DNA of 64,000 nt, from positions 384,181 through 448,180 of the forward strand of contig JABLXZ010000002.1 in assembly GCA_013177935.1 (NCBI GenBank). The letters are read 5' to 3'. Shown piece by piece: positions 44,548 to 64,000 of this stretch. Below the pieces are notes generated by a model, which was not told the DNA's origin, searched no databases, and saw only the letters and a program-made list of their open reading frames with translations. The DNA comes from a candidate division WOR-3 bacterium (GTDB taxonomy: Bacteria; Hydrothermota; Tepidihabitantia; Tepidihabitantales; Tepidihabitantaceae). Both the position numbers and the translations under genes were made by a program. Positions within the stretch are counted from its first letter, which is position 1; each line of letters begins with the position of its first letter.

Positions 44548-45183
44548 TCAGTTCAATAATAGGAGTTTCCCCTGCCATGTGATGTATTCGGAACGGACCT
44601 TCAGGATATAGACACCTTTTGATAGATGACAGACATTGAGATGAGCAGCGCCGGAACCGGCTGGGGTAATTGAGCGAGTAAGAACTAAAGTGCCGTTAGG
44701 TGCGTAGATTTGGACAATTGCCCGATTTGTTGGTGGAAGTCCGTTTACCTGAATCCAGCCTTTGGGTGCAGGATTAGGAGTAACCGTAAGGTGAAATACA
44801 TTGTGATTAATTGGGCCATTCAATCCGCTGAGCGTTGTGTCAAAGCGCACCGCACTTCCTTCTATGTCATACCAGGTGTCACAGAGAACTTGGTCAATGA
44901 CAAATGAACGGGGCATACCGTTGATTTGAGCAAACAGTTCGATTCTTATGGGCCATTGCTCCTTGGGAGAAAACTGAAATGTGTCAAGAGAACTTGGCGG
45001 ACCACCCCAGCCCGGAGTTGATTCCATTACCGGTTGAGGCTGAAGGAAAAAGTACCAGCGCATGCTGTCAATCTGAGTAGAATTCATACCGGTGTTAAGG
45101 TAGCCGTAGATGTCCAGCGCCGGCAGTCGGACAGGAATGAGCAAGACAACTAAAACTACGGCGGGAATCAATCCTTTTTTCAT
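44548..45183 (-). CDS. Hypothetical secreted protein with T9SS-like C-terminal domain
   Basis: Start refined to MKKGLIPAVVLVVLL (AGGAG SD); C-terminal beta tail (KGVYILKVRSE...). Confidence 0.45.
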   Translation of the reverse strand: MKKGLIPAVVLVVLLIPVRLPALDIYGYLNTGMNSTQIDSMRWYFFLQPQPVMESTPGWGGPPSSLDTFQFSPKEQWPIRIELFAQINGMPRSFVIDQVLCDTWYDIEGSAVRFDTTLSGLNGPINHNVFHLTVTPNPAPKGWIQVNGLPPTNRAIVQIYAPNGTLVLTRSITPAGSGAAHLNVCHLSKGVYILKVRSEYITWQGKLLLLN

Positions 45184-45249
45184 ATTCACTCCTTTCCCTT
45201 TTCCCAAGTAGAATTATACCAGAATTTAGCGCTAAAGTCCAGTGTGAGG

Positions 45250-46578: not shown

Positions 46579-46736
46579 TTTTCTTCCTCCTTTTTTATCT
46601 TTTTTATAATAATACATTAGTGGTGTGCGACCGGGTTGTGTGCCGTTATAAACCACAGGTAATAAATATACCAAATTAATTTTTATTGTCAAATAAAACC
46701 CGTTGCTGGAATTGTGACGGTCTTTTAAAAAATTGC

Positions 46737-46764
46737 TTGACAAGAGGAATTATAGAAATATAAT
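46737..46764 (+). promoter_or_regulatory. Sigma70-like promoter TTGACA-N16-TATAAT
   Basis: Same architecture as promoter at 16124; ~125-nt leader contains 8-bp hairpin ATGAGGTG/CACCTCAT. Confidence 0.55.
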
Positions 46765-46890
46765 ATATACGCTCACCAAAAGGGTGACATCCGAATTAAA
46801 ATGGGTGAGAGAATGCACCTGAAAATATGAGGTGGCACAAAACACCTCATAAGGTGCGGTAAAAAGTAAAAACCAAAAAAGGAGGCTTGG

Positions 46891-49800: not shown

Positions 49801-50931
49801 GCACGCGGCTACAAGTCCGGCGACTTCTACGCCTATGACCCGAACGCGGACAGTGCGGGTAACTGGACAACTCTGACTCCGATTCCGGCGACCGAGGGTA
49901 AACTGCCTTACAAGGGTGCGAACGGCTGCTATGGTGACGGCTATATCTACGCCACCATCGGCAACAACACCCAGGGCTTCCTGCGTTACTCGATTGAGGG
50001 TAACTCCTGGGAGCCGCTGGCAGCGGTACCGCTGGGTGCGAGTGGCAAGAAGGTCAAAGGTGGTACCGACCTCGTGTATGTGGACGGCTATGTGTACCTG
50101 TTGAAGGGTTACAAGACCGACTTCTTCCGGTACAATGTTGCCGCCTCTGCCTGGGAGTCGCTGCCTTCAGCACCGGCTGGTACTCGTCCGAAATGGGACA
50201 AGGGCTCCTGGCTGGTCTGGGATGGTCAGAACACGCTCTATGCTCACAAGGCGAAGTACGGTGAGATGTGGACATTTGACCTGACAACCCAGCAGTGGGG
50301 CACCGCGTCACTTCCGGGTATGCCGACCTCAAGCAGCAAGACCGGCAAGAACAAGAAGTCCAAGGACGGTTCTGATGGCGCCTACTACAACGGCTACATC
50401 TATGCGCTCAAGGGTGGCAACACCGTTGAGTGGTGGCGTTATGAGGTTGCCGGTAATGCCTGGACCGAACTTGACCCGATGCCGGAGGTTGGTTCTACCG
50501 GCAAGAAGAAACGGGTCAAGGCGGGTGGCGCACTTGCTGGCTACGGTGACAACCCAATCTTCTTTGCCCTGAAGGGTGGCAAAATCCAGGAGTTCTGGCG
50601 CTACTACGACACCACAGTGGTGGTGTATGCTGCGAAGCCGGAGCGCTCGGGCGTGATGGCGGAGCAGGTGAATGCGAACCGGTTTGGGTTCAGCGTGGCG
50701 CCGAATCCGGTGGTCAAGGGTTATGGCTTGCTCTCCTACAGCGTGCCGCAGCAGGCACCGGCGCGGTTGACGGTGTATGATGTGACCGGTCGAGATGTGA
50801 TGCATCTCACCTTTGTCGCTTCGGGCACCGGCACGCGCAACCTTGACCTGCGGTCGCTGGCAGCGGGTGTGTATCTGGTGAAGTTTGAGAGCGCCGGATA
50901 CAACGCGAGCCAGAAGCTCATCGTCCGGTAG
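46891..50931 (+). CDS. Giant secreted multi-domain protein (PQQ-like propeller, CARDB-like, Kelch-like propeller) with T9SS C-terminal domain; paralog of 16236..18899
   Basis: Signal peptide; N-terminal PQQ/BamB-like repeats; C-terminal 300 aa ~60 percent identical to 16236 ORF incl. KWDKGSWLV and PMPEVGSTGKKKRVK blocks; T9SS tail; AAAGGAGG SD. Confidence 0.6.
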   Translation: MNRSIGMGVLTLLVLTGVGFALTPTLPPASLTDLPPEVAYAQTVQFWVTGDGQVIHTPTLKDVQEAIEAGILAPGTVLGNGGGEPQPLPVDEFMWPMHGHDVYQNAWNPLIPQDTLRSLWTATYTSAAWAPWFGYPAIAAGKVVYVDCGTGYLYCRDITDGTVIWSTQVQASSYYPGSPVIFEGTGGQLWVAVPNYGTSGNTPRVSCYRLDNGQSVWTAAVPLGSAGASSTNLNFNRPVYYNGYIYHITLEFSTPYGGVLYRVNALTGDTMRLSTRGSSCGGALTIDPNGQYGYWPCWNPASPSNPKIMKINLATGALVDSTPVITDYPRGSVAINPTTRRLFCGGSASTSGSGSIRCYNADNLAAGPIWTFTTSGGHDIQYPAIDYENVYYTTQSTPGRLYAVKQSDGTGAWNTQGYITVPDNSAIYDGVPCVTGAVGSTRYVYLTPGYYTGANIWVVNAANGNTVQYRQVSSSEYMFTGASRPAGYFVSKSGYGTIFCFRSPNDLTIRNHDIAAYRIDIPEGVKLTPGQTITPTVTYINYGTNNEANFLVAFRVDSADQNLYLEGVLITDSVLSGDTFSVTFPDWTPANQYWAGYQIKAWVELTGDEAPGNDTVRRACMTTTDTCYSYRSNNAPSIDGYLAAGEWDDAYYVNVSNIAGWGGMTQSSNAAWMRLKHDGNNLYLAFGMPQAMTRDAGDQIGFYLDESGDGEWATDNSEGNYWFWVNQYNNDEVLYRWHTPDTFGQQLTVPGAQSASGTLNGYLVFEVKVPFGTLPYQISMNPVNDTGKLWLFSLDGSSFYGWWPADMPDTLWRQPMYYGTFILRTLQTGDVGVKSIDAPRSARPGDAVVPKATWKNFGTTSMNFTAYYLMNDPSGTRVYSESQTATLAGGAEIQLTFPSYVVNTEGDWAVKCSTVAGGDVNAANDIRTGTFRVSTAPPVTPGWVEVKSIPGAPKDGAFLAFNPDNGLIYAARGYKSGDFYAYDPNADSAGNWTTLTPIPATEGKLPYKGANGCYGDGYIYATIGNNTQGFLRYSIEGNSWEPLAAVPLGASGKKVKGGTDLVYVDGYVYLLKGYKTDFFRYNVAASAWESLPSAPAGTRPKWDKGSWLVWDGQNTLYAHKAKYGEMWTFDLTTQQWGTASLPGMPTSSSKTGKNKKSKDGSDGAYYNGYIYALKGGNTVEWWRYEVAGNAWTELDPMPEVGSTGKKKRVKAGGALAGYGDNPIFFALKGGKIQEFWRYYDTTVVVYAAKPERSGVMAEQVNANRFGFSVAPNPVVKGYGLLSYSVPQQAPARLTVYDVTGRDVMHLTFVASGTGTRNLDLRSLAAGVYLVKFESAGYNASQKLIVR

Positions 50932-50949
50932 TAGAGACCGGTTAAAAGT

Positions 50950-50982
50950 GAAGGGGGGCTTTAAGCCCCCCTTCTTTTTTAT
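50950..50982. terminator. Bidirectional rho-independent terminator
   Basis: AAGGGGGGCTTtAAGCCCCCCTTCTTTTTT between convergent genes. Confidence 0.7.
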
Positions 50983-50995
50983 TTAAGTTGTTAAC

Positions 50996-51541
50996 TTAAT
51001 GGATGACGAGAAAGCGGCGCACGATGTTGGGCTGTTCAGTGGAACGGAAGAAATAAATCCCGGGTGTCAGAGGCCGGGAGCGCACCACCATTCCCGAAGC
51101 GTTCAGGATTTCAATCCGGGAGTCGGCAAGCAGGTTGTTGAGCAGAGCCGGAAAGGCAATCATACCCGGTGTCTCCTCAATGCCGGTCTGACCCTGAAAC
51201 TTGATTTTCACCAGGTCAAACGGCGGTGGGAACGAGTACCAGGAGTCGTTAACCGGACGGTAGATGCTATCAGAAACGGGCATCCCGGCAACCATTGCAG
51301 AGTATTTTATTATTGCGGGCCAGCCCGGAAACTCCGGGAACTGGAATGGATTGGTTTCGCCCGGATTAGCTTCCCAGCCCGGGGTTGGGAACCAGGTTCC
51401 GGTGGAGCCATAGAAAAAGTAGACCGAATCGACTACAACCGGTTCTGTTTCGGTTGTCAGGTAGCCGGTAATCTGCCACTGGGCGGTGCTCAGCGTCACC
51501 AATCCCAGAGCGATGAGGGTGATAAAGAACTTCTGTTTCAA
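50996..51541 (-). CDS. Small secreted protein with T9SS-like C-terminal domain
   Basis: Signal peptide MKQKFFITLIALGLVTLSTA, AAGGAGG SD, beta-rich C-terminal tail. Confidence 0.45.
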   Translation of the reverse strand: MKQKFFITLIALGLVTLSTAQWQITGYLTTETEPVVVDSVYFFYGSTGTWFPTPGWEANPGETNPFQFPEFPGWPAIIKYSAMVAGMPVSDSIYRPVNDSWYSFPPPFDLVKIKFQGQTGIEETPGMIAFPALLNNLLADSRIEILNASGMVVRSRPLTPGIYFFRSTEQPNIVRRFLVIH

Positions 51542-51718
51542 AATTACCTCCTTTTTAATGCAATAAGTTTAGTAACACCGTTTTTTAATGTCAAGGAAAA
51601 AAGTCGGGCAGGGTTGCGTTCTTAAATCAAAGGAAGAGGTTTGCGAAGTAAAATTTGCTGGGCAGATATTATAAAGGAAGGTTTAAACCGTGATACGCGG
51701 TTTTGTTTTTCCAACCTG

Positions 51719-51734
51719 TATACTTTAAAGTATA
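51719..51734. promoter_or_regulatory. 16-bp palindrome TATACTTTAAAGTATA (second copy of motif at 12526)
   Basis: Perfect palindrome; shares 17-mer GTATACTTTAAAGTATA with 12527-12543. Confidence 0.45.
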
Positions 51735-52284
51735 ATAGCCGTAAATGGCTGTTTTCATATAACATATTGTAATTTAGATAGTTAACATAATGGGATACAA
51801 TTTTCCCTACCCAACCCCGGGGTAGTCTCCGGAATGGTATGGGAAATTGAAGTTGAGGTGGTTTTGGGGTGAGAACCTGATTCACCTGACCGGCTAATAA
51901 TCGGCACCATTAACGGGTTTGAGTGCAGGGTAAAATTGGGTTGGGTGGTGATAAGATAGAAGACCGGAAAACCGGGCGGGGTGGGTTGAGCCGAATTTCA
52001 GGCTTGACCGGGTATAATTTGCCAGTTAAAATTGGGATGATGAACTCAGTTAGAGCCGTGGTTTGCAGGAGGTGGCGTAGATGAACCGCCCATTTTACCG
52101 GAGCGGTCTGCTCCACCTTCAAGGACAGAATAGCGCGGCTCGTTTAGTTTCCCCAAAACAGTCAGGGACCGGCAGTCGGGAAAGATGAAGCTCCGGTTTT
52201 GTGCCGGCGGTCTGCCGGTTCGTAAAAGTAAGCACCAACTAAAAGCCCAACAAAAAAACAACCAGACAAAACAAAGGAGGTAAA

Positions 52285-53076
52285 ATGGCAAAGCGTTACG
52301 ACTATACCGGTAAGGATGTCCAGGAGGTTTATGACGGTCCGGGCGGTCTGCTCTGGGAAGCGGTGATGGGCGAGCAGATTCACTCAGGCGGACCAGAGGC
52401 AACCGACCGTCTGGCAAAGGCGCTGGGACTGAAACCCGGGATGCAGGTGCTTGATGTGTGCAGTGCGCTGGGCGCGCCGGCAAGGCACATCGCCCAGAAG
52501 TACGGGGTTAAGGTTACCGGTCTTGACTTTACCAGGACGATGCTGGAGAAGGCAAGACAGCGGACCAAAGAGGCAGGGCTTGACCATCTGATTACCTTTG
52601 TTGAAGGCACTGCGCTTGATATGCCGTTCAAGGCGAACACCTTTGATGTGGTCTGGGGTCAGGAGGCGTGGTGCTATGTTACGGACAAGGACCTCCTGGC
52701 GCGGGAGTGTTATCGGGTGTTGAAACCGGGCGGCAAGATTGGTTTTACCGACTGGGTGATTACCGGCAAAATTGAGGAGGACCTGCTCGCAAAACTTTAC
52801 GAGTCGATGGCGTTTCCCTATATGGAGACATTTGAAGGGTGGCAGGAGGTTTTGAAGCGCGCCGGGTTTAAGGTGCTTGATGCCCAGGACCAGACTGAGG
52901 AGTTTGCCCGCTGCTTTGATGAGTACAAGGTGATGGTGGAAGAGAAACTGAAACCGGCGATTCTGCAAAACTTTGGCAAGGACTTGTTTGATTTTGCGGT
53001 CAACCTGGTGAATATGTGGCGCGATGCGGCGCATCGGCATCAGGTAGGCAGAGGGTTTTACATCGGGCAGAAGTGA
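52285..53076 (+). CDS. Class I SAM-dependent methyltransferase
   Basis: Motif I VLDVCSALGAP and downstream acidic-loop motifs; AAAGGAGG SD. Confidence 0.6.
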   Translation: MAKRYDYTGKDVQEVYDGPGGLLWEAVMGEQIHSGGPEATDRLAKALGLKPGMQVLDVCSALGAPARHIAQKYGVKVTGLDFTRTMLEKARQRTKEAGLDHLITFVEGTALDMPFKANTFDVVWGQEAWCYVTDKDLLARECYRVLKPGGKIGFTDWVITGKIEEDLLAKLYESMAFPYMETFEGWQEVLKRAGFKVLDAQDQTEEFARCFDEYKVMVEEKLKPAILQNFGKDLFDFAVNLVNMWRDAAHRHQVGRGFYIGQK

Positions 53077-53226
53077 CCAGGCGTATTCTATTCTGGGTGC
53101 TAATCGGGCTCGGTACCGGCGCGCTGGTTTTTGGCTCTTTCATTGGTGCCTGGGCACGGATTGGCTACTTCAGCAGTCAGATATGCCTCTCCTGTATGGG
53201 TTTGGTTTAATAAAAAGGAGGTGTTT

Positions 53227-55026
53227 ATGAGGGGTAAGTTGCTGATAGTTGCCGGGCTGTTTTTGCTATCCGGCACAGTAATGGCAACGCAGCGGGTGAT
53301 GGTGATGGAGGACTTCACCGCCACCTGGTGTACCTATTGTCCGGGCGCGGCACGCGGTGCTGAGGAGTTGAAGTTTCGGGCGTTTGATTCGGTGGTGGTG
53401 ATTGCCTATCACTCGTCAACCAGCGACCCGTTTTACACCCCAGAGGCGGCGAGCCGGATGAGTTATTATGGCGTGACCGGCTATCCGACGATGCGGCTTG
53501 ATGGCGGACAGGCGGTGGTTGGAGGTCTGCATTACGGCACGATGTATCCGGCATACCGGCAGTTCTTTGACACCCGAAAACTGGAGCCGAGTCCGCTCGA
53601 TATCAGATTGACGGTCACCTATGATTCTTCATCAAGGAGCGGGGTGTTGACAATCGTGGTTCGGAATACCAGTTCCAGCGCGGTCAGCGGTCAGTTGCAC
53701 ACCGTTCTTACCGAAAGTCACATCTACTACCCCTGGCAGGGGATGGATAGCCTGCACGATGTCCAGAGGTTGATGCTTCCTAACGCTGCGGGCGAGGCGA
53801 TAACGGTCAACCCCGGGGATTCGGTGGTGCGAACAAGGAATTTCACCATCAATTCGGGCTGGGTGGCAAGGAACTGCGAATTTGTCGTTTTCGTCCAGAA
53901 CAACACCACGAAGTGGATGTATCAGGGTGCGAGTATCGAAGTGATACCGGAGCCGGAACTGGAGTTTGTCGGTTATCAGCCGGTACTGCCCCGCCCTGGG
54001 CAAAACTTCAATCTGACGCTCGGGTTGCGTAACATCGGCAGTGGGGCGCTGAGCGGTGCCAGTGCGGTGCTGTCAACCGATGACCCGTATCTTACCGTTC
54101 TCCAGGGCACGAGCAGTTTCGGGCAAATCAACCGGGGTGCGGAAGGTTATTGTAACACGCCGTTTCAACTGCAGGTGAGTTCTTCGTGCCCGGACCCGCA
54201 TCAGGCGACACTAAAACTGGTAATTACAACAACCGATATGGTGGTTGATACGGTGACATTTCCTTTGAACATCACCACGAGCCCGGGTTTTGCCGATGAT
54301 ATGGAGCACGGCATCGGTGGCTGGACCCATAGCGGCACCCGGGACAACTGGCACCTTTCGAATTACCGCGCCTCTTCACCCAGTTACTCCTGGTACTGTG
54401 GGGTAGAGTCAAACCACCAGTACACAAACGAGAACGATGCCCGACTTGTGACGCCGTTTTTCACCCTGGGCGACTCTGCCTGGGTGCGGTTCCAGCATTA
54501 CTACGACACGGAGGCGGACTTTGATTTCTGTGTGCTGGAGATAAACAACGGTTCACCGTTCTGGGTGCCGGTCGGGATGTGGAGCGGGTCAAGTAACGGC
54601 TGGCAAGAGGAGGCGTTCGATTTAAGCCCGTTGCGCAATCAGACGGTGCGGTTGCGGTTCCGGTTTATCAGCGACTACAATGTTACGGGCGAGGGCTGGT
54701 ATGTTGACGACTTTGAGTGTGGTACAAGGGTCGGCGTTGCCGAACAAGAAGGGCAAAAGGTGCTGCCCGTGCTGGCGGTGAGCAGTCCGGTACGAACGCG
54801 GGCTAAGGTGCGGTTTGTTTTGCCCGCCGGGGTCAAGGCGGAGGCGCGGGTTTACGACATCAGCGGGAAACTGGTGCGACAACTGAGTGACAACCTTAGT
54901 GGCAGCGGAACCGTGGTCTGGAATCTGACCGATGTCACAGGCAGGATGGTGAGTGCTGGTGGCTACTTTATCCGGATGAGTTATGACAACACCACGGTCT
55001 GTGTACCGATGGTGGTGGTGCGATAA
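53227..55026 (+). CDS. Secreted thioredoxin-fold (WCxYC) multidomain protein with T9SS C-terminal domain
   Basis: Start refined to MRGKLLIVAGLFLLSGTVMA (AAAGGAGG SD); TATWCTYCPG redox motif; T9SS tail. Confidence 0.5.
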   Translation: MRGKLLIVAGLFLLSGTVMATQRVMVMEDFTATWCTYCPGAARGAEELKFRAFDSVVVIAYHSSTSDPFYTPEAASRMSYYGVTGYPTMRLDGGQAVVGGLHYGTMYPAYRQFFDTRKLEPSPLDIRLTVTYDSSSRSGVLTIVVRNTSSSAVSGQLHTVLTESHIYYPWQGMDSLHDVQRLMLPNAAGEAITVNPGDSVVRTRNFTINSGWVARNCEFVVFVQNNTTKWMYQGASIEVIPEPELEFVGYQPVLPRPGQNFNLTLGLRNIGSGALSGASAVLSTDDPYLTVLQGTSSFGQINRGAEGYCNTPFQLQVSSSCPDPHQATLKLVITTTDMVVDTVTFPLNITTSPGFADDMEHGIGGWTHSGTRDNWHLSNYRASSPSYSWYCGVESNHQYTNENDARLVTPFFTLGDSAWVRFQHYYDTEADFDFCVLEINNGSPFWVPVGMWSGSSNGWQEEAFDLSPLRNQTVRLRFRFISDYNVTGEGWYVDDFECGTRVGVAEQEGQKVLPVLAVSSPVRTRAKVRFVLPAGVKAEARVYDISGKLVRQLSDNLSGSGTVVWNLTDVTGRMVSAGGYFIRMSYDNTTVCVPMVVVR

Positions 55027-55029
55027 GGG

Positions 55030-55791
55030 ATGCGGGTGCAAAGGGGCAGGTTGCTGTTTTTCTTCAGCAGCCTGCCCCTGATTTTGGGCTGTTCAGATGC
55101 GCCGTTGATTCCACTCGTGCCCACCAATCGGGTGGTGCTGGTTGAGTTTTTTACCTGGCAGCGGTGCGTTTACTGCCCTTATGCGGCACAGGCACTGGAC
55201 AGTTTGACAAAGGAGTTTTCGGACAGTGTGGCAATAATTGCCTATCACCGGCGCGTTGCGGGCGACACCCTTTCTCCGGAGTATGTTGAGGAGCGGCGTC
55301 AGTTCTATTACGAGTCCGGCGGTGAGCCGGCAACGGTTTTTGATGGCGGTCCGGTGGTGCGCACGCCTGGACCGGAGTACAACTACGAGACATTTAAGAA
55401 TTACATTCTCGGGGCGAAGGCGGTTTTGCCCGGGGTGGAACTGGTGATTACGACGCAGCGCGACTCTTCTCGGGCAACAGTTCTCGCCCGTGTTTTCGGG
55501 GTCGATTCGACACCGGAAGAGAGTTTGCGGCTTTATCTGGTGATAACCGAAGATTCGATACGAACGGTTTTACCCGGTGCAACCGACTCGGTTTTTAACA
55601 ATGTGATGCGGCTGATGCTGCCGGATGTCAATGGTTGGTCGTGCTGGTTGCGCCGGGGCGACAGTTTGCAATTTGACCAGACGGTACCGCTGCCGTCCTA
55701 CTGGAATCACCAGCGGTTGAGTGTTGTGGGTTTTGTGCAACAACCCTCAACCGGGCGGGTTTTACAGGCGTGTAAAAAGAGACTGGATTGA
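55030..55791 (+). CDS. Thioredoxin-fold (CxYC) protein paralogous to N-terminus of 53227 ORF
   Basis: FTWQRCVYCPYAA motif and conserved IAYH block shared with preceding gene. Confidence 0.45.
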   Translation: MRVQRGRLLFFFSSLPLILGCSDAPLIPLVPTNRVVLVEFFTWQRCVYCPYAAQALDSLTKEFSDSVAIIAYHRRVAGDTLSPEYVEERRQFYYESGGEPATVFDGGPVVRTPGPEYNYETFKNYILGAKAVLPGVELVITTQRDSSRATVLARVFGVDSTPEESLRLYLVITEDSIRTVLPGATDSVFNNVMRLMLPDVNGWSCWLRRGDSLQFDQTVPLPSYWNHQRLSVVGFVQQPSTGRVLQACKKRLD

Positions 55792-55800
55792 TAAAAGGAG

Positions 55801-56385
55801 GTGAAGATGAGAAGGATGTTTTTTTGTCTCTTAATTTTTGCCGGATTGGTGACACCGGCTAAAGCCGATTACAGTTTTAGTTTTGTGTGCCGGAGCGAGA
55901 CTTTGCAGCAGGTGGTGCCGGAAGGAGTTGCCGTTTACTACTTCACCCTGACCAACACCGGAACCGAGCCGGACATTTACCTTTTTGACTGCCGGGTTTT
56001 ACAGGAGGTGCCGGGCTGGAGCGCCATCTACTGTTTGCGCGGGCGGTGTGTTGAACCCGGGATACCGATGTTTGACACGCTGGCGCCGGGTGAAGCGGAC
56101 ACGACAATTGACATCACGGTGTTCACGACCAGTACCGAGGGTGAGCAGGTGATTCAAATGACGGTTACCTCTCAAGGCGACCCGTCACAGGTCAGTTCAA
56201 TTAGAACTTATACCCGGGTAAGTTGCGGTATTGAGGAAGGGGTAACTCGTTTTGGGTATAAGGCGGTGCCGGGTCTGGTTTTTGATTATGCGGGAAGAAG
56301 GGTGCGGGCGGTATTGACGCCCGGTATCTATTTTGTCCGTCGGGATGACGGTGGTGGTTTTCAGAAGGTTGTAGTTTTGCGTTAG
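55801..56385 (+). CDS. Hypothetical secreted protein with T9SS-like C-terminal tail
   Basis: Signal peptide MKMRRMFFCLLIFAGLVTPAKA, AAAGGAGG SD. Confidence 0.45.
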   Translation: MKMRRMFFCLLIFAGLVTPAKADYSFSFVCRSETLQQVVPEGVAVYYFTLTNTGTEPDIYLFDCRVLQEVPGWSAIYCLRGRCVEPGIPMFDTLAPGEADTTIDITVFTTSTEGEQVIQMTVTSQGDPSQVSSIRTYTRVSCGIEEGVTRFGYKAVPGLVFDYAGRRVRAVLTPGIYFVRRDDGGGFQKVVVLR

Positions 56386-56394
56386 GATATTAAT

Positions 56395-57435
56395 TTGAGA
56401 AAAAGGGGGCTTTTGAGTTTTGCCCGCGCTGCGGGCTGTGCGGGCAAGGCGTGTCAGGCTGACCTGTTTGCCATTTTAGACGGGTTACCCGGTTTTAAAC
56501 ATCCCGATTTGCTGGTGAGCGGCGCAACCGCAGACGATGCCGGGGTGTTTCGGCTGGATAAAAGACGGGCGCTGGTTCTGACTGTGGATGTTTTACCCCC
56601 GGTTGCAGATGAGCCTTATGTGTTCGGGCAGATTGCAGCGGCAAACTCCCTTTCTGATGTGTATGCGATGGGCGGTATGCCGCTTGCCGCACTGGCAGTT
56701 CTCGGGGTACCGGTTAAAGAGATTGAGTTTGAGACCGTGCGGAGGGTGCTTGCCGGTGCCTGGGACAAGGTTAAGGAGGCGGGTGCGGTTGTTGCGGGCG
56801 GTCACACGGTAAGAGACCAGGAGTTAAAGTTCGGTCTGGCTGTTACCGGGATTGTTCATCCGGCAAAGGTTGTGACCAATGCCGGTGCCAGACCTGGGGA
56901 CCGGTTGTTTTTGACCAAACCGCTCGGAACCGGGGTTATTACAACCGCCCAGAAGAACCGCCGGGCGCCACCGTATCTCGTGGCGCGGGCAAACCGATTG
57001 ATGGCGCAGTTGAACCGGCTGGCAGCAGAGGCGATGACCACAGTCGGGGTAAGCGCGGCAACCGACATTACCGGTTTCGGGTTGCTGGGTCATTGCTGGG
57101 AGATGGCACAGGCGAGCGGGGTTGACATAGTTATCAACGCAACAGCGGTGCCGTTTATTCCCGGAGTGAAGAAACTGGCTCAGGAGGGATGGTTTTGCGA
57201 AGGGACCTTGAACAATTATAAGTTTATGAAAAGCCGTGCCGATTTTGCCCCGGGGATAGACAAAACGATGCGTCTTTTACTGTGCGACGCCCAGACTTCA
57301 GGCGGTTTGTTGATTGCCGTGCCAGAAAAGAAGGTAAGGCGACTTATCAACGAGTTGGTGAGAGCCGGAGTTGATGGTGTCCGGGCGGTGGGTGAGGTGC
57401 GAGCCGGAACCGGAAGGGTACGGGTGGTCGAATGA
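56395..57435 (+). CDS. selD: Selenide, water dikinase (selenophosphate synthetase), Cys-type
   Basis: N-terminus LLSFARAAGCAGKACQADL aligns with E. coli SelD SHGAGCGCKISPKVL; PurM-like DDAGV motif; apparent TTG start. Confidence 0.65.
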   Translation: MRKRGLLSFARAAGCAGKACQADLFAILDGLPGFKHPDLLVSGATADDAGVFRLDKRRALVLTVDVLPPVADEPYVFGQIAAANSLSDVYAMGGMPLAALAVLGVPVKEIEFETVRRVLAGAWDKVKEAGAVVAGGHTVRDQELKFGLAVTGIVHPAKVVTNAGARPGDRLFLTKPLGTGVITTAQKNRRAPPYLVARANRLMAQLNRLAAEAMTTVGVSAATDITGFGLLGHCWEMAQASGVDIVINATAVPFIPGVKKLAQEGWFCEGTLNNYKFMKSRADFAPGIDKTMRLLLCDAQTSGGLLIAVPEKKVRRLINELVRAGVDGVRAVGEVRAGTGRVRVVE

Positions 57436-57480
57436 TAAGTTTGTTGCCGAAAGTTTTTGATTTCCTATAATATCTGACTT

Positions 57481-58119
57481 ATGGCAGAGAGAGCGGATTT
57501 ATTCTCCTTGCTCGTCGATGCGGTTGTTGCCCTGAAACCGGAACAGGTGCAGCGGTTGTGCGCAGAGGCTTTGCGTCAGGGTGTGCAACCGGAGGAGGTG
57601 CTGGAGAAGGGGCTGGCACGGGGTATGCGGGTGGTGGGTGAGAAGTTTGCGGCAAAAGAGTATTTTGTGCCCGAGGTGCTTTTGGCATCAAAGGCGATGT
57701 ATGCCGGGTTTGACATCATAAAAGAGAAAATGGCACCAAAAACCAAAAACCCGGGCCGGGTGGCGCTGGGTGTGGTGCAGGGCGACATCCACGATATCGG
57801 CAAGAATATTGTCAAGGTGATGGTGCAGGCGGCAGGGTTTGAGGTCGTGGATTTGGGCAGGAATGTGCCGATTGAGCGGTTTGTTGCCGCAGCGGAAGAG
57901 GGGGTGCAGATTATCGGAATGTCATCTTTAATGACGACGACGATGCCCAATATGGCAAAGGTGATTGAGGCGCTGAAAAAGAAGGGGTTACGGGAAAGGG
58001 TCAAGGTGCTGGTTGGCGGCGCACCGGTGACGCGCCTCTTTGCCGAACGGATTGGTGCGGACGGCTATGCGCCGGATGCCCACAGCGCGGTGGTAGAGGT
58101 GGAGCGGCTGTTGAAATAA
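57481..58119 (+). CDS. Corrinoid (B12-binding) protein of methyltransferase system
   Basis: B12-binding DxHxxG motif (GDIHDIGKN), ~210-aa two-domain (helical cap + Rossmann) layout like MtaC/MtbC. Confidence 0.7.
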   Translation: MAERADLFSLLVDAVVALKPEQVQRLCAEALRQGVQPEEVLEKGLARGMRVVGEKFAAKEYFVPEVLLASKAMYAGFDIIKEKMAPKTKNPGRVALGVVQGDIHDIGKNIVKVMVQAAGFEVVDLGRNVPIERFVAAAEEGVQIIGMSSLMTTTMPNMAKVIEALKKKGLRERVKVLVGGAPVTRLFAERIGADGYAPDAHSAVVEVERLLK

Positions 58120-58122
58120 GGC

Positions 58123-59115
58123 GTGGAACGGGCAAGGGAGCGGTTAAATACCGTTTTGCAAGCAGAACGGTCCAGAGTCACGCCGCCGGTGGTGTTTCCG
58201 ATTGTCGTGGCAAATCATGCGGCTCGGGTTGCGGGTGAAAGGTTGCGCCGTGCCCTGACCGATAGTTGGGTTCTTGCTGAGGTACTCTATCATGCGTATC
58301 GGCTCTACAATTACGACCTGATAATGGTGTTCGCTGATGTTCTAATTGAGGCGGAGGCGATGGGGTGTGAGATTGAGATGGTGGAGGATGAACCGCCAAT
58401 TTTAGCACGACCCGCAGGCACCGCGGCACAGGTTGCCGATGTGGAGCGCGGGTGCCGGATGAAGGTAATTCTTGATGCAACCGGTGAACTGGTCAAAAGG
58501 GTGGGCAAAGAGGTGTATGTGTTGACATCGCTCAAGGGTCCATTTTCCCTTGCCAGTTTTCTTGCGGGACCCGAGGAGTTTCTCGAAAGTTTGATTTCGG
58601 CACCGGAAAGGGCAGAGTGGTTTTTACAAAGGGCGAGCGAGAACCAGAAAAATTTTGCCCGGGCGATTGTGCAGCGGGGTGGAGTACCGTTTATCGGCGA
58701 CCCAATGGCTTCCGGTAGTATTATCAGTCCAGGTTTGTTTGCGCGGTTTGCCCTGCCCTATTTAAAGGAACTGGTGGCAGAGATTCATCGGTTGGGCTGT
58801 TGGACCGGGTTGCATATCTGCGGGGACACGACCGGGATTTTGCGGATGATGCGCGACAGCGGTGCTGAAATATTAAGTGTGGATGAGATGGATATCAGTT
58901 TTGTCCGTCAGGAGGTCGGTCCGGACCGGGTAATTATGGGCAATGTTTCAACCGGCTTGCTGGAGAGCGGGACACCAGAAGAGGTGCAGCAGGCGGCTCG
59001 GGACTGTCTGAAAAAGGGGTTGCCCAGGATGATTCTTGCCAGCGCCTGCGATGTGCCAGCCGGGGCACCGGTGGCGAATGTCCAGGCGCTGGTGTCTGCA
59101 GCGCAGGGGTGGTGA
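58123..59115 (+). CDS. URO-D-family methylcobamide methyltransferase (MtaA/MtbA/MtoB-like)
   Basis: URO-D/MtaA-like length and conserved blocks; immediately follows corrinoid protein. Confidence 0.55.
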   Translation: MERARERLNTVLQAERSRVTPPVVFPIVVANHAARVAGERLRRALTDSWVLAEVLYHAYRLYNYDLIMVFADVLIEAEAMGCEIEMVEDEPPILARPAGTAAQVADVERGCRMKVILDATGELVKRVGKEVYVLTSLKGPFSLASFLAGPEEFLESLISAPERAEWFLQRASENQKNFARAIVQRGGVPFIGDPMASGSIISPGLFARFALPYLKELVAEIHRLGCWTGLHICGDTTGILRMMRDSGAEILSVDEMDISFVRQEVGPDRVIMGNVSTGLLESGTPEEVQQAARDCLKKGLPRMILASACDVPAGAPVANVQALVSAAQGW

Positions 59116-60518
59116 TGAGAGTGCGCTGTGTTCCAAACGGAATGAAATCCCTTCAAGAGCTGCTCTGGGCAAAAGGGGTGAATTTATCCGGTGATTGTGG
59201 CGGCAGGGGCAGGTGCGGTAAGTGCCGGGTGCGGCTCGTGCCGGATGGTAAAACGGTGCTTGCCTGTCAGTTTGTTCCCAAACATCCAGTCACGGTTGAG
59301 GTTGAGCAAGGGTTTAACCGGTACAACGCTCGGGTTAAGAGGAGCAGGTCAGCGCCCAGCCCAATGAACAAGGATTTGGTGCTGGTTGCGGACATTGGCA
59401 CAACAACTTTAAGGCTGGCAGTAATTGACCAGGCACAGGGGCGTCGGGTTAAAACCGAGACGCAGTTAAATCCGCAGATAAGATTTGGTACGGATGTTCT
59501 TACCCGGATAGGTGCGGCAAGCAAGGTGCAGCGGGCAGGGGTGAATGAGTCGCTTCAGGAGTTTATGGACCGGAACGGAGTTCCCCGGTCAGGTCTGGTC
59601 ACGGTGGTGGGTAATACGGTGATGATGCACTTTGTTTTTGGCAAGAGTCCGAAAGGTCTGGGGCAATTCCCTTATCGCACAAGGTTGCCCTTGAGGCGGG
59701 TGATTCAAGGTGCCCGAAACGGATTGAAGTTGCGCACCCTGCCGCTGCTCGGTTCGTTCATCGGCAGCGACTGCACCGCCGCAATTTTTGCCGCGGGGAT
59801 ACACAAAACCGAACGGCTGACGCTTTTAGTTGATGCCGGAACTAATGGTGAGGTGGTTTTGGGTAACCGGCACAAAATTGTTGCCTGTTCCACCGCAGCC
59901 GGACCGGCTTTTGAAGGGGCAACTTTGAGTTGTGGTGTGCTTGCGGTACCAGGGGCAATTAAGAGTTGCCGGTTGCGGCGGGGCATATGGGTCGTGAAGA
60001 CGGTGGGAAGTAAAGTTCCAACTGGAATCTGTGGTTCGGGCGTACTGGATGTTATTGCTGAAGCGTTGCGCGTAGGTTTGATTGAGCCCGGGGGTAGACT
60101 GAACCAGGGCGAGCGGCTTCAAATTTATGGTAAGGAACCGGCAGGTGTTTATCTCACGCAGGCGGACATCAGAGAGGTGCAACTGGCAAAGGCGGCGATT
60201 GCCACGGGCATAAAGTTGTTGTGGCAAGAGTGGTCGGGAAGGAAAATCGAGCGGGTGGTGATTACCGGTCGGTTTGGCGGTAAGTTAAACCACCGGGCAG
60301 CAATGGCGATTGGGCTTTTGCCGGTTTTGCCGGAGTCGGTGATTTACCAGAAACCAGACCTGGCACTGGCAGGAGCGATAAAGGCGGTGCTTGAGCCGGA
60401 AGTGCTAAAACAGGCTGAGGAGTTGAGTAATCGGGTGACCGAGATTCGGCTTGCGGAGCATCCCGATTTTGAAAAGATGTTTGTTGAATCACTGGCGTTA
60501 ACAGAATGGCACTCTTAG
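59109..60518 (+). CDS. RACo/RamA-like reductive activator of corrinoid proteins (N-terminal [2Fe-2S] ferredoxin + ASKHA ATPase domain)
   Basis: Plant-type 2Fe-2S motif CGGRGRCGKCRV...C followed by ~400-aa ASKHA-like region. Confidence 0.55.
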   Translation: MVMRVRCVPNGMKSLQELLWAKGVNLSGDCGGRGRCGKCRVRLVPDGKTVLACQFVPKHPVTVEVEQGFNRYNARVKRSRSAPSPMNKDLVLVADIGTTTLRLAVIDQAQGRRVKTETQLNPQIRFGTDVLTRIGAASKVQRAGVNESLQEFMDRNGVPRSGLVTVVGNTVMMHFVFGKSPKGLGQFPYRTRLPLRRVIQGARNGLKLRTLPLLGSFIGSDCTAAIFAAGIHKTERLTLLVDAGTNGEVVLGNRHKIVACSTAAGPAFEGATLSCGVLAVPGAIKSCRLRRGIWVVKTVGSKVPTGICGSGVLDVIAEALRVGLIEPGGRLNQGERLQIYGKEPAGVYLTQADIREVQLAKAAIATGIKLLWQEWSGRKIERVVITGRFGGKLNHRAAMAIGLLPVLPESVIYQKPDLALAGAIKAVLEPEVLKQAEELSNRVTEIRLAEHPDFEKMFVESLALTEWHS

Positions 60519-61627
60519 AAAGAAAACGGCTGGAAGGTTTGCGCGCGGAACGGCTTGAGGAACTGAAGAGTTTGAAGGCGCAGGGGAAAAAGGTGGTGGG
60601 TTACTTCTGCCTTTATGCGCCGGTGGAAATTATCCAGGCGGCGGGCGCGGTTCCGGTGCGGCTGGCGCGTGCCGATTATCAGAGTGAACTGGAAGGCGAG
60701 CGGTTTCTGCGGGCGGATGCCTGTCCGTTTTGTAAGGCGAGTCTGGGGAAGTTTGCCCACGACCCGTTGTATCAACTAATTGACGCTGTGGTCAGTGTCA
60801 ATACCTGTGATATGATGCGCCGGTTGCCGGAGTCGATAACGGCAAACTTTTCGTTGCCGGTGTTTTCGCTTTATCTGCCGCGCACCAGTGAACCGTTTCC
60901 CAATCGGTTGAGTGCGTTTCAAGCCGGATTGGTGGACTTGAAGGAGTGGTTGGGCAGTTTGACCGGTCAGGAGTGGCAAAACGAGCGGCTGAAAGAAGCG
61001 ATTAATGAGATGAACCAGTTGCGGCGCAAACTTCAGGAACTGGACCAGAGCCGGGCGGAAAAACCGCCGAAAATTCGGGGCGGTGAACTGTTTGATATCG
61101 TAGCACTGGCAACACTGCTACCACCCAGAAGGATGCTAAATTTGCTGAATGAGTTGTTATCAATGGTTTGGGCGGCGCCAGGAACGGTGGACAAGAATCG
61201 GGTCCGGCTGCTGTTGACCGGTAGTATCTTATCAGAAGAGGACCGGACACTAATCGAAATTGTTGAAGAAGGAGCGGATATTGTTGCGGATACGGTATGT
61301 ACCGGTAGTAGATGGTTTCACGAGGAGTTAAAGGTTGAAGAGGAGCCGTTTGCCGGGCTTGCCCGCTTTTATTTTAATCGAACACCGTGCGCCTGCCGCA
61401 GGCCCAACAATGCGCTTTTTGATTACATCAGAGAGCAGGTACAGGAGCGAAAGGTTCAGGGGATTGTCAACAAGAGTTTGCTTTACTGCGACGCCTATCG
61501 TTTTGAGGGAAAATGGCTGCGCCAGGAGATTGGCATTCCGGTGCTGGAGGTTGATGGCGACTATTCCCAGGAGAACCTCCAGCAGTTGCGCACCCGGATT
61601 GAGGCGTTTCTTGAGATGTTGCGATGA
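60506..61627 (+). CDS. 2-hydroxyacyl-CoA dehydratase / benzoyl-CoA reductase subunit-like (HgdB/BcrC family) protein
   Basis: Family-typical length and Cys-containing blocks (YFCLYAPVEII, CPFC, NTCDMM); overlapping start with upstream and downstream genes. Confidence 0.4.
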   Translation: MALLERKRLEGLRAERLEELKSLKAQGKKVVGYFCLYAPVEIIQAAGAVPVRLARADYQSELEGERFLRADACPFCKASLGKFAHDPLYQLIDAVVSVNTCDMMRRLPESITANFSLPVFSLYLPRTSEPFPNRLSAFQAGLVDLKEWLGSLTGQEWQNERLKEAINEMNQLRRKLQELDQSRAEKPPKIRGGELFDIVALATLLPPRRMLNLLNELLSMVWAAPGTVDKNRVRLLLTGSILSEEDRTLIEIVEEGADIVADTVCTGSRWFHEELKVEEEPFAGLARFYFNRTPCACRRPNNALFDYIREQVQERKVQGIVNKSLLYCDAYRFEGKWLRQEIGIPVLEVDGDYSQENLQQLRTRIEAFLEMLR

Positions 61628-63036
61628 GGAAACTGGATTATTACGACCCGGAACCGGCGCGGATTACATTTGATGAGTGGGACGATTTGTTTCAGAAAAT
61701 CCCGGACGAGTTGATTGAAAAATTTCACTACTTTGCACCCAATCAGGAGGCATGGTCAAAATACCTTTTCCCCCCGCAGGTCTTTGCCATCTACGGAGCA
61801 AGGCATCTGCGCCGTCTGAAGTTTGACAACTCGCTTGCCGCATTGCGAATGTGGGGTTTTGTCCAGAATGAGATTGAACGGCTGTTTCGTGCCCGACAGA
61901 TTGGGAAAAAGGTTGTGGCGGTGATGGGCGATTTAGGACCACTAGCGGTGATTGTGGATTCGGTGGGGGCAAAGCCGGGTTCGGATAAAGACGATAGGGA
62001 GTGTGTGGCGTTTTATCCGGACTGCTGGTGGTGGACCCCTTTTGCGATGGAGAGTAAGGTGTTACTGGAAAAGGCGGCAGAGTTAGGTATCGGCGATGCC
62101 ACCTGTTTTTCCCGGGCGGCACTGGGCGCCTTTGCCAAGCACAGTTACTTTCCGGACCCGGATTTGGTGATTGCGGCAACCGGTGCATCGTGCGACGACT
62201 ATTCTGGGGTGGAGAGCCTGGTGGCAAAGATGGTGCCCGAGGTTATTTGGGTGGAAACACCACCCCGCTGCGTTGAATCCAAGGCAAGGGAAAGGGTTGA
62301 GTTGATGCTGGTTGAGGAGTATCAACGGGTGATTGAAAAACTTGAGGGGCTGACCGGTGTCAAGGTGACCGAGGAGATGTTGCAACAGGGGGTGCGACGG
62401 GCAAATCATTTGCGTCGTCTTACCCAGCGGTTTAAGGAACTGGCTTACGGTTATGGTGTGTTCCCGGCGCTGGAAACGATGGTTGTGGAGTTTGGCTGTC
62501 TGCACGGCTACTCCGATTTTGCGGAGTGGACCGCGATTGTCGAGCATCTGGTAGAGACCGCCACAGTGCGATTGCAGCAGGGTAAAACGGTGCTGGCGGG
62601 TGACAGTTTGCGGATTGGCTGGGTGACACCACCCGCCGACCCGTTGCTTTTGTGTTATGTTGAAGACCAGGGAGCACGGGTTGTCGCGACCGAATATGTG
62701 ATTAATCAGGCATTGAGTTTGATTGATGAGACGGTACCGCCCCTTTTAGGTATCGCCCGGTCCCTGCTCAACGCTTCTTTGATTGGTTCGTCAAGAGAAA
62801 GGGCGGCGATGTTTGTCCGGGCAGCGCAGCAATGGCAAGCCGAAGGTGTGATTGTTTCCGGAATTTTAGGTGGTTCGCACTGCGCGATGGAGTCGCGATT
62901 GATTGGTGATTATATTAAACAGAAACTGGACATTCCGATTCTGGAGTTTGATGTTGCGCCGCCGAATAAGGCGATTGACCGTCAAACCCAGACCAGGATT
63001 GACGCATTTCTGGAACTGGTGCGGAGCCGGCGATGA
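61624..63036 (+). CDS. 2-hydroxyacyl-CoA dehydratase / BcrB-like family protein (partner of 60506 ORF)
   Basis: Paralogous architecture to preceding gene, translationally coupled (ATGA overlaps). Confidence 0.4.
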   Translation: MRKLDYYDPEPARITFDEWDDLFQKIPDELIEKFHYFAPNQEAWSKYLFPPQVFAIYGARHLRRLKFDNSLAALRMWGFVQNEIERLFRARQIGKKVVAVMGDLGPLAVIVDSVGAKPGSDKDDRECVAFYPDCWWWTPFAMESKVLLEKAAELGIGDATCFSRAALGAFAKHSYFPDPDLVIAATGASCDDYSGVESLVAKMVPEVIWVETPPRCVESKARERVELMLVEEYQRVIEKLEGLTGVKVTEEMLQQGVRRANHLRRLTQRFKELAYGYGVFPALETMVVEFGCLHGYSDFAEWTAIVEHLVETATVRLQQGKTVLAGDSLRIGWVTPPADPLLLCYVEDQGARVVATEYVINQALSLIDETVPPLLGIARSLLNASLIGSSRERAAMFVRAAQQWQAEGVIVSGILGGSHCAMESRLIGDYIKQKLDIPILEFDVAPPNKAIDRQTQTRIDAFLELVRSRR

Positions 63037-64000
63037 AGGAGTTGCTCAATCCCCGGGAACGGTTTTCTCTGCTCGTGATTGACGAACCTCAGGACCGGGT
63101 GCCGATTTTTCCGTTATTGACCGCCCGTGCCGCAAAATTTTGCGGGGTGAGTTTGCGCGACTACTACACCGATGGGTTGATGATGGCGCAATGTCAGTTG
63201 CGCGCCCGGGAGTTTTACAACACCGACTTCATCTCAATTTTTTCTGAGGTGGGTTTGATTGCCGAGGCAATAGGTTCGGAGTTTGTTTATCCGGAAGACG
63301 ACCTGCCGGTGCTGGCGCGTCCGCGCTGGAACACAGTTGAAGATGCCGCCCGGGGTTTGAAGAGCGAAATGGCGCTTGCGGGTCGGGTGAAGGTTTATCT
63401 GGATGCGATTAGTTATGTCTGGGAGGCGATTGCCGATGTTGTGCCGGTTCTTGCTTATGTACCGGCGCCTTTTACCACCGCCCAGCAGTTAATAGAGCCC
63501 GAGGAGTTTCTGGTTGCCCTGCTGGAAAAACCGGAACTGGTAAAGGTAGTCCTTGACCGTGTGACCCAACTGGTAAAGGCGTTTTCCCGACTATTGATTC
63601 GCGCCGGCGCGTTGCCCATTTTGGTTGACCCACTCGCTTCCGGTAGTGTGCTCAGCCCCAGGGAGTATCAGGAGTTTGCCCTGCCCGCCGAAAAGGCGGT
63701 AATAGATTTCTGGCACCGTTATGACCTGGATGTGGTTTTACACATCTGTGGCGACACGAGTGCAATCGTGATGATGATGCCGGAAACCGGCGCGGATTTG
63801 ATTAGCGTTGATAAGGTGGACCTTGGCTCGGTTATTGCGACGGTGGGAGAAAAGGTGCGGGTCATTGGCAATTTTGATACGACCGAGTTGTGGCTGGGAA
63901 CACCAAAGGAGATTGGCGATAAGGTTAGGGAGATGGTCGCGCAGGCGAAGGGCTGTCCGCGTGGTTATGTGGCAGCGACCGGGTGTGAGGTGCCAATCGC
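63033..64000 (+). CDS. Second URO-D-family methyltransferase (partial, runs off window end)
   Basis: Alignable to 58123 ORF (YNTDFISIFSEVGLIAEAIG vs YNYDLIMVFADVLIEAEAMG); no stop before window end. Confidence 0.5.
   Translation, partial: MKELLNPRERFSLLVIDEPQDRVPIFPLLTARAAKFCGVSLRDYYTDGLMMAQCQLRAREFYNTDFISIFSEVGLIAEAIGSEFVYPEDDLPVLARPRWNTVEDAARGLKSEMALAGRVKVYLDAISYVWEAIADVVPVLAYVPAPFTTAQQLIEPEEFLVALLEKPELVKVVLDRVTQLVKAFSRLLIRAGALPILVDPLASGSVLSPREYQEFALPAEKAVIDFWHRYDLDVVLHICGDTSAIVMMMPETGADLISVDKVDLGSVIATVGEKVRVIGNFDTTELWLGTPKEIGDKVREMVAQAKGCPRGYVAATGCEVPI

Follow-up and report, generated by a model that had tools for sequence, protein, structure and literature searches.

Results

Organisation of the locus

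The window analysed here is a 64,000-nucleotide stretch of a candidate division WOR-3 genome (assembly GCA_013177935.1, contig JABLXZ010000002.1, positions 384,181 to 448,180 of the forward strand), which ends in a corrinoid methyltransferase cluster enclosing a pair of HGD-D family genes. All genes of the cluster lie on the plus strand. It starts with selD (56395-57435), encoding a selenide water dikinase, and continues with the genes for a corrinoid (B12) methyl-carrier protein, CoP (57481-58119; 212 amino acids); MlpA, a zinc-dependent MtaA-like methyltransferase (58123-59115; 330 amino acids); a RACo/Ram-type ATP-dependent corrinoid reductive activase (59109-60518; 469 amino acids); HGD1, a double-cubane-type subunit (60506-61627; 373 amino acids); HGD2, its divergent partner subunit (61624-63036; 470 amino acids); and MlpB, a second zinc MtaA-like methyltransferase (63033-64000), truncated by the window end. 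These seven genes had been named in the original prediction, and the open reading frame listing and profile searches confirm every one of them. The tight packing it described, with overlapping stops and starts, is borne out at four junctions: MlpA and RACo overlap by 1 or 7 nt depending on the RACo start, RACo and HGD1 by 13 nt, and the HGD1/HGD2 and HGD2/MlpB junctions each share an ATGA.

To follow the cluster past the window, the DNA was extended through an exact look-up of HGD2, which led to an identical 23-kb Logan contig (L001). There, full-length MlpB has 353 amino acids. Only 6 nt separate its gene from the next, which encodes an HgdC-type (BcrAD_BadFG) ATPase of 259 amino acids (TIGR00241, 249 bits; cut-off 125) and whose extrapolated position, 64101-64880, is outside the window. 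Convergent housekeeping genes for an AAT-domain protein, GcpE and EPSP synthase come next. The original prediction had proposed looking beyond the window for a substrate-specific methyltransferase (MT1) or a transporter; neither is present downstream in this contig, and nor is a pterin-binding methyltransferase. L001 as a whole has no pterin-binding gene, so the cluster includes no tetrahydrofolate (H4folate) methyltransferase.

SelD is the cysteine form of the enzyme (TIGR00476, 356 bits, cut-off 125; NF002098, 315 bits, cut-off 299), with Cys15 and Lys18 in its N-terminal motif GCAGK, cysteine taking the place of selenocysteine. In the 45 nt that separate selD from the corrinoid gene is a promoter-like site on the plus strand, TTGCCG-16-TATAAT (57444-57471; L001 5625-5652), which is a consensus match only. 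The promoter scan returned 12 consensus sites against 6.8 expected, and the promoter and terminator scans together gave weak consensus matches only.

Corrinoid protein, zinc methyltransferases and activase

CoP combines B12-binding_2 and B12-binding domains (TIGR02370, 207.5 bits) and has the B12-binding motif DxHxxG at residue 102, kept in 29 of 29 orthologs. MlpA and MlpB belong to the URO-D family (216 and 210 bits). MlpA matches the MtaA structure 4AY7 with an E value of 4e-27, and in both proteins the His-x-Cys and distal Cys zinc ligands align with those of MtaA; the His-Cys-Cys set is present in all 13 MlpA and all 10 MlpB orthologs checked. The assignment of the URO-D proteins to corrinoid methyl transfer rather than haem synthesis, together with the B12 motif of their carrier, had been the points named as able to refute the original prediction, and it stands on both. 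Uroporphyrinogen decarboxylase (HemE) was considered and rejected as an identity for either protein, with TIGR01464 scores of 68 (MlpA) and 83 (MlpB) against a cut-off of 303 and MtaA-type zinc ligands in place.

Neither protein is an MtaA or MtbA equivalog: scores for MlpA and MlpB are 151 and 118 bits for the MtaA model (cut-off 400), 130 and 121 for MtbA (600) and 208 and 169 for TIGR01463 (235). They are each other's best BLAST match, at 38% identity. For comparison we used canonical mlp clusters from Acetoanaerobium noterae, Clostridium formicaceticum, Sporomusa ovata, Gottschalkia acidurici, Anaerovirgula multivorans and one metagenome-assembled genome, whose gene order, (CobW)-Mlp1 (289 amino acids)-Mlp2 (356)-CoP-Mlp3 (343)-Ram (~600), is that of C. 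ljungdahlii. One-to-one orthology of MlpA and MlpB with Mlp1, Mlp2 and Mlp3 was tried by BLAST and did not resolve cleanly. On NF004889 (cut-off 244), A. noterae Mlp3 reaches 424 bits, MlpA 210 and MlpB 166.

Two neighbour-joining trees of 39 and 48 sequences recover separate clades for Mlp1 with Mlp3 (90-93%), Mlp2 (100%), MlpA (92%) and MlpB (100%), and in neither does a WOR-3 clade join Mlp3. MlpB is sister to Mlp2 plus auxiliary Mlp with 96% support in the 39-sequence tree, which falls to 24-35% with 48 sequences. Its identity to Mlp2 is only 28-32%, against 62-99% among Mlp2 proteins themselves.

The activase has the make-up of RACo and Ram proteins, as had been predicted: a [2Fe-2S] domain (Fer2, 23 bits, cut-off 21), a RACo middle domain (Raco_middle, 96 bits, cut-off 27) and an ASKHA C-terminal domain (RACo_C_ter, 212 bits, cut-off 27). 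It is neither an AcsV nor a RamA equivalog (228 bits against 800 and 98 against 500). The protein is about 130 residues shorter than the ~600-residue activases of canonical mlp clusters, the gap lying between the [2Fe-2S] and middle domains.

The HGD1/HGD2 pair and its ATPase

HGD1 (HGD-D, 273 bits) has cysteines at positions 35, 73, 101, 265, 295 and 328, and all six are kept in 31 of 33 cluster orthologs. Its best solved-structure match is the double-cubane cluster protein (DCCP) of C. hydrogenoformans (6ENO/7YYL, ~1e-44), ahead of BzdN (2e-28) and HadC, with 157 bits for DCCP and 103 bits for BzdN. The seventh cysteine of the DCCP motif is absent, since every cluster ortholog has Ala, Leu or Met at position 54, and both HGD1 (244 bits) and HGD2 (70 bits) fall below the cut-off of 350 for the NF040772 double-cubane family.

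HGD2 (HGD-D, 125 bits) has just four invariant cysteines, at 134, 161, 190 and 420. An hhalign comparison with the HGD1 family (probability 99.5%) equates Cys161 with Cys73, Cys190 with Cys101 and Cys420 with Cys328, and places non-cysteine residues opposite HGD1 positions 35, 265 and 295. HMMER sets Cys420 three residues off the family cysteine, and hhalign aligns the two. The remaining cysteine, Cys134, lies in a Trp-rich insertion specific to HGD2, FYPDC[WIT]WW. The AlphaFold2 model of HGD2 (pLDDT 78, pTM 0.85) matches DCCP, HadB, BzdO and MbdO in Foldseek, and its best predicted superpositions are on HadB and MbdO (TM 0.69). Residues 117-126 of HGD2 (61972-62001) form a 10-residue insertion, AKPGSDKDDR, which just two proteins of a 15-sequence alignment have: that of the window and its closest relative.

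Two cluster orthologs of HGD1 (L020:8790-9941 and L022:5591-6667) have lost exactly Cys35, Cys265 and Cys295. This loss shows that these three cysteines serve one sub-cubane and the other three the second; HGD1 and HGD2 of these two genomes would each hold no more than a single cubane. The two paralogous HGD genes are always paired in the loci that we surveyed. Judged by their ligand patterns, HGD1 and HGD2 are predicted not to form a classic homodimeric double-cubane protein; the pair appears to follow the BzdN/BzdO design, with a double-cubane electron store and a single open-site [4Fe-4S] cluster, and by sequence and context it lies outside the BzdNO family. The correspondence of HGD2 cysteines with BzdO ligands was matched through homology to HGD1, not by direct alignment with BzdO. 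A double-cubane system had been offered as an alternative in the original prediction, and this half holds: it fits HGD1, with six cysteines and DCCP as best match, and does not fit HGD2, with its three homologous cysteines.

The ATPase has Cys127 and Cys166, which we take, from HgdC and from the equivalent pair in the DCCP reductase (DCCP-R), to be the ligands of its bridging [4Fe-4S] cluster. In DCCP-R the cluster cysteines are C115 and C152 (PMC9351452). The position of this dedicated HgdC-type ATPase immediately after MlpB means that the reductase pair has its own activator, and the suggestion that the RACo-type ASKHA protein might also serve the HGD pair becomes unnecessary.

Conservation and selenium-gene neighbourhood

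A survey of one genome per species yielded 41 loci, in which synteny was read by tblastn with the window proteins. The named genomes among them are WOR-3, except for one labelled Planctomycetia, and named HGD2 homologs are all from candidate division WOR-3 or Ca. Stahlbacteria. The order CoP-MlpA-(RACo)-HGD1-HGD2-MlpB-ATPase is colinear in essentially all sufficiently long loci. Given this recurrence across 41 species genomes, the arrangement of the cluster is not due to chance. HGD2 is also widespread in metagenomes, where its sequences fall into over 800 clusters at the 90% identity level (388 + 464, two match sets that may overlap).

The flanks differ between two clades. In the clade of the window, housekeeping genes lie downstream. 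In a more distant clade, with HGD2 ~46% identical, the order is selD, FtrB-like, S-adenosylmethionine (SAM) methyltransferase, CoP, MlpA, (RACo), HGD1, HGD2, MlpB, ATPase, selA, selB, with selA (554 bits) and selB (354 bits) downstream of the ATPase. Of the 41 loci, 16 have selD close to the cluster, and in one locus (L036) yedE (344 bits) is directly 5' of the corrinoid gene. Since the core and the selenium genes persist while the flanks change, their linkage is functional rather than a relic of inherited gene order.

Nine loci have no RACo in the cluster (L015, L017, L022, L030-L033, L035 and L041); they still have CoP, HGD1, HGD2 and MlpB, and most also have MlpA and the ATPase. In four loci an ATP-binding cassette (ABC) transporter and an outer-membrane protein stand beside the cluster (L037:1379-5023, L028:22-3285, and downstream of the ATPase in L042 and L024). 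The transporter consists of an NMT1-type binding protein with a PCCC motif, weakly SaoX-like, a permease and an ATPase, and is a possible route of substrate uptake. Neither it nor FtrB was found within the 64-kb window.

Three further features of these neighbourhoods were seen. A 100-residue protein resembling the ferredoxin-thioredoxin reductase beta subunit (PF02943, 51.5 bits; CPC...CPC...CxC) is encoded at L030:6248-6550 and in L020, L032-L035, L041 and L042; in most of these eight loci it is near the SAM methyltransferase gene, in several immediately 5' of it, and it matches the 'double-selenoprotein' FtrB model weakly. A canonical double-cubane protein that has all seven cysteines and is accompanied by a BcrAD ATPase of its own, additional to HGD1 and HGD2, sits next to selD at L033:4445-5746, L040:1391-2662 and L037:18-977. 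Lastly, in Peptoclostridium acidaminophilum (L044, NZ_CP007453.1 382518-407408) a corrinoid protein and one URO-D methyltransferase lie ~7 kb from yedE, tusA, DUF3343 and selD, a further selenium-linked corrinoid methyltransferase context.

Genes upstream of the cluster

A class I SAM-dependent methyltransferase of 263 amino acids (52285-53076, plus strand; Methyltransf_11/25 domains) is probably the first gene of the ancestral cluster. It had not been included in the original prediction. In 13 WOR-3 loci its gene directly precedes that of CoP, and in 7 others the two are no more than ~5 kb apart; with 61-96% identity, its product is better conserved than any other protein of the neighbourhood. 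The nearest solved relatives are phosphoethanolamine N-methyltransferases (E 6e-30). All specific NCBIfam models score far below cut-off, including those to which there is a weak resemblance: arsenite methyltransferases, DVU_1556-type methyltransferases and a 'corrinoid protein-associated methyltransferase' model. A literature search found no paper on DVU_1556.

In the window, selD and three genes for secreted or outer-membrane proteins (53131-56385, plus strand) separate the SAM methyltransferase from CoP. The three products have 631 (Omp28 and MAM-like), 253 (Omp28) and 194 amino acids, and the two Omp28-domain proteins carry the thioredoxin-like CxxC motifs FTATWCTYCPGA and FFTWQRCVYCPYAA. 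The trio recurs upstream of the cluster in ~10 WOR-3 loci, and its membership in the system is uncertain. Further upstream, at 44548-50931, several large secreted proteins have Por_Secre_tail sorting domains of the type IX secretion system, which fits a surface-rich WOR-3 contig. Within the part examined for base composition (48000-64000), GC skew is strongly positive (0.13-0.32) over the co-directional gene block from ~50000 to the window end.

Discussion

The gene content of the cluster brings it close to the mlp gene clusters defined by Kountz and Balskus (bioRxiv 2023), which occur in more than 100 anaerobic genera, often with selD, selABC, DCCP and DCCP-R, and which are proposed to demethylate methyl-selenium or methyl-sulfur compounds (PMC10418091). 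Methyl transfer from methylcobalamin to selenide has been demonstrated for ClMlp2, which also has weak sulfide activity (PMC10418091), and sdmABC, linked to the mlp clusters, is required for dimethylselenide use by M. voltae (PMC10418091, PMC11097638). With moderate confidence, and reading from genes and motifs, we regard the WOR-3 cluster as an mlp-cluster variant in which corrinoid-dependent methyl transfer would involve selenium (or sulfur) as the nucleophile. Its most likely purpose is to recover selenide from methylated selenium compounds, so that SelD can use it and selenocysteine can be made. An mlp assignment is preferred to methylotrophy because the cluster includes neither an MT1 nor an H4folate methyltransferase, has a soft His-Cys-Cys zinc site and is linked to selD, selA, selB and yedE.

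From the domains, motifs, synteny and selenium-gene linkage described above we infer a scheme of methyl transfer, activase repair, selenide supply and low-potential reduction. One His-Cys-Cys Mlp would bind a methyl-selenium compound and hand its methyl group to the Co(I) form of the corrinoid protein, and the second Mlp would either strip a second methyl group or unload methyl-Co(III) to a thiol acceptor. RACo, with ATP, would re-reduce corrinoid that had slipped to Co(II), and the selenide released would pass to SelD. In parallel, the HgdC-type ATPase dimer would feed electrons to the [8Fe-9S] double cubane of HGD1, probably an electron store, from which they may pass to HGD2 with its single three-Cys [4Fe-4S] cluster, open iron site and invariant cysteine. 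Our guess is that the reductase performs a hard reductive step on the selenium substrate upstream of the Mlps, such as cleavage of a C-Se, Se-Se or Se-S bond or reduction of Se(0) to selenide. Tentatively, and with much less assurance than we attach to selenide salvage, HGD1, HGD2 and the ATPase could thus be a new BzdNO-like [8Fe-9S]/[4Fe-4S] reductase for low-potential reduction of selenium (or sulfur) compounds, coupled through the operon to corrinoid methyl transfer. For example, reductive C-Se cleavage would free methylselenol, which the Mlps would then demethylate.

Several observations weigh against selenide salvage as we describe it. Where the upstream DNA is long enough to judge, selD is not found nearby in about half of the loci, and selA, selB, yedE and tRNA-Sec were not found within the window itself. 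RACo is missing from the cluster in several loci. The cluster has no Mlp3 or other obvious methyl-unloading enzyme, and the conserved SAM methyltransferase is given no role in the scheme. The choice of selenium over sulfur draws on gene neighbourhood only, and HGD2, for which our reductase substrate is a guess, could, by analogy with BzdO and HadB, have a CoA ester as its ligand.

The loci without selD count in favour of a rival reading, in which the same machinery would act on methyl-sulfur compounds such as methanethiol, dimethylsulfide, methylthio-alkanes or intermediates of methionine salvage, with the reductase cleaving C-S bonds in a role like that of MarHDK. A His-Cys-Cys zinc site suits sulfur as well as it suits selenium, and the weak sulfide activity of ClMlp2 points the same way (PMC10418091). 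Some of the published mlp clusters, with an ATP-driven reductase close by, have moreover been attributed to the salvage of sulfur or methionine, and nitrogenase-like MarHDK occurs in non-selenium clusters (PMC10418091). Against this, selD, selA, selB and yedE recur beside the WOR-3 cluster in two differently arranged clades, and methionine-salvage or sulfur-assimilation genes were not seen in the neighbourhoods. Double-cubane proteins, furthermore, co-occur almost exclusively with SelD, 955 of 970 strong examples being in SelD-containing genomes (Haft and Gwadz, bioRxiv 10.1101/2022.07.06.499078). We therefore favour selenium salvage, at somewhat better than even chances, over the sulfur version, which we consider doubtful.

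The nine loci that keep HGD1, HGD2 and the ATPase and have no RACo in the cluster raise the question of whether the reductase serves the corrinoid itself, its low-potential electrons regenerating Co(I), either in support of RACo or in its stead. Energised electrons of the kind that such ATPases supply are indeed what the Co(II)/Co(I) couple needs (PMC7317905). However, in most loci the two systems are found together and would be redundant, and in genomes without a cluster copy RACo could be encoded elsewhere. HGD2 also has the look of a substrate-binding, catalytic subunit, given its three-Cys cluster, invariant extra cysteine and Trp-rich insertion, and we judge this alternative unlikely. The same low probability applies to a system running in the methylating direction, in which the SAM methyltransferase, the corrinoid system or both would add methyl groups to selenide or another metalloid so as to detoxify or volatilise it. 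Such a role would make sense of the conserved SAM enzyme and its sub-cut-off likeness to arsenite and DVU_1556-type models, and the ClMlp2 assay was indeed run as a methylation (PMC10418091). Yet the position beside selD, selA and selB suggests supply of selenium and not its disposal, no methyl donor enzyme is present to load the corrinoid, and the closest solved relatives of the SAM enzyme act on the nitrogen of small amines.

The original prediction had taken the combination of URO-D methyltransferase, corrinoid protein and activase as the signature of a methylotrophic or O-demethylase system of the Mta, Mts or Mto type. Catabolic methylotrophy of an Mta-, Mto- or Mtv-like kind, feeding methyl groups into energy metabolism, does share this make-up, but it is very improbable here. 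No MtaB-, MttB- or MtvB-type MT1 and no gene of an H4folate or coenzyme M branch occurs in or after the cluster, the selenium genes are its recurrent partners, and the URO-D enzymes of O-demethylases have carboxylates in place of the Cys zinc ligands (PMC10418091), whereas all orthologs checked here are His-Cys-Cys. Least probable of all is that the HGD pair and ATPase form a 2-hydroxyacyl-CoA dehydratase or aryl-CoA reductase that is placed in the operon but has nothing to do with it. Family membership and the HadB/MbdO superposition would allow this, but in all 41 loci the HGD genes have methyltransferase genes on both sides, with overlapping stop and start codons. Genes for a CoA-transferase, an acyl-CoA dehydrogenase or a dienoyl-CoA pathway are absent nearby, and the equivalog models fail by wide margins (HadC, 104 bits against 700; BzdN, TIGR03190, 99 against 454; BzdO, TIGR03191, 19 against 449).

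What double-cubane cluster proteins do in the cell has yet to be established (PMC9351452, PMC7317905). The operon described here fixes a double-cubane-type reductase between two corrinoid methyltransferases of the selenium/sulfur type, and in one clade also between selD and selA-selB. Its compact set of nine genes (SAM methyltransferase, selD, CoP, MlpA, RACo, HGD1, HGD2, MlpB and ATPase) offers a test bed for the role of such a reductase. If HGD1 and HGD2 do reduce selenium or sulfur compounds, this would be the first physiological role of double-cubane-type enzymes other than in the breakdown of aromatics, and it would account for the fact that they are nearly always found together with SelD. 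The occurrence of a BzdN/BzdO design here, a double cubane feeding an open-site [4Fe-4S] cluster, suggests that it arose more than once or predates aromatic degradation. The cluster also extends mlp-type systems to an uncultured phylum common in sediments and hot springs, with a bearing on selenium cycling in anoxic habitats. A literature search found no publication on this cluster in WOR-3.

Comparison with known systems

The HgdAB/HadBC dehydratases have two subunits that each hold one three-Cys [4Fe-4S] cluster, from which the six cysteines of HGD1 and its low score on the HadC model set the WOR-3 pair apart; no CoA-transferase is encoded near the HGD genes in L001. The activase shares with RACo and RamA the succession of N-terminal [2Fe-2S] domain, middle domain and C-terminal ASKHA ATPase domain, and differs from the ~600-residue activases of canonical mlp clusters in its length of 469 residues.

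DCCP and DCCP-R of Carboxydothermus hydrogenoformans (6ENO, 7YYL; PMC7317905, PMC9351452) resemble the WOR-3 system in the six cluster cysteines of HGD1, the adjacent two-Cys ATP-dependent reductase and the link to SelD, which for DCCP comes from comparative genomics. DCCP, however, is a homodimer of one gene product with a seven-Cys motif (PMC7317905), whereas HGD1 lacks the seventh cysteine and is paired with a divergent paralog that has lost one sub-cubane. Closer in design is BzdNO/MbdNO, the catalytic dimer of class I benzoyl-CoA reductase (PMC11971306; PDB 8S02, 9G87), which likewise pairs a six-Cys [8Fe-9S] subunit with a three-Cys [4Fe-4S] subunit and depends on an HgdC/BcrAD-type ATPase. 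The [8Fe-9S] ligands of BzdN are Cys36, 73, 100, 263, 293 and 327, nearly the numbering found in HGD1, and those of BzdO are Cys95, 128 and 380 (PMC11971306). The WOR-3 pair differs in falling far short of the BzdN and BzdO models, in having one ATPase gene instead of two, in the absence of aromatic-degradation genes, and in the Cys134 and Trp-rich insertion that are peculiar to HGD2.

With type 1 mlp clusters and with sdmABC of M. voltae and M. maripaludis the WOR-3 cluster shares several MtaA-like His-Cys-Cys zinc methyltransferases, a corrinoid protein and a bacterial-type Ram/RACE activase. As in type 1 clusters, there is no H4folate methyltransferase, the hosts are anaerobic and selD and selAB are frequent neighbours; DCCP and reductases are found inside some. 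It differs in that its two Mlps form clades of their own, in having no Mlp3, Mlp1 or CobW, in a reductase fixed inside the operon as a two-gene pair, and in the conserved SAM methyltransferase beside it; the six canonical Firmicutes mlp clusters that we sampled have neither HGD genes nor this SAM enzyme alongside. The WOR-3 cluster is accordingly classed, on its gene content, as mlp-type, yet lies outside type 1 in the strict sense, which calls for both Mlp2 and Mlp3, for want of an Mlp3. HGD genes in this company had seemed unexpected in the original prediction, but double-cubane proteins and reductases were already reported in such clusters, in a list of organisms that does not include WOR-3 (PMC10418091). 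Both the kind of cluster and the association of HGD with mlp genes have therefore been described before; the layout found in WOR-3 is new.

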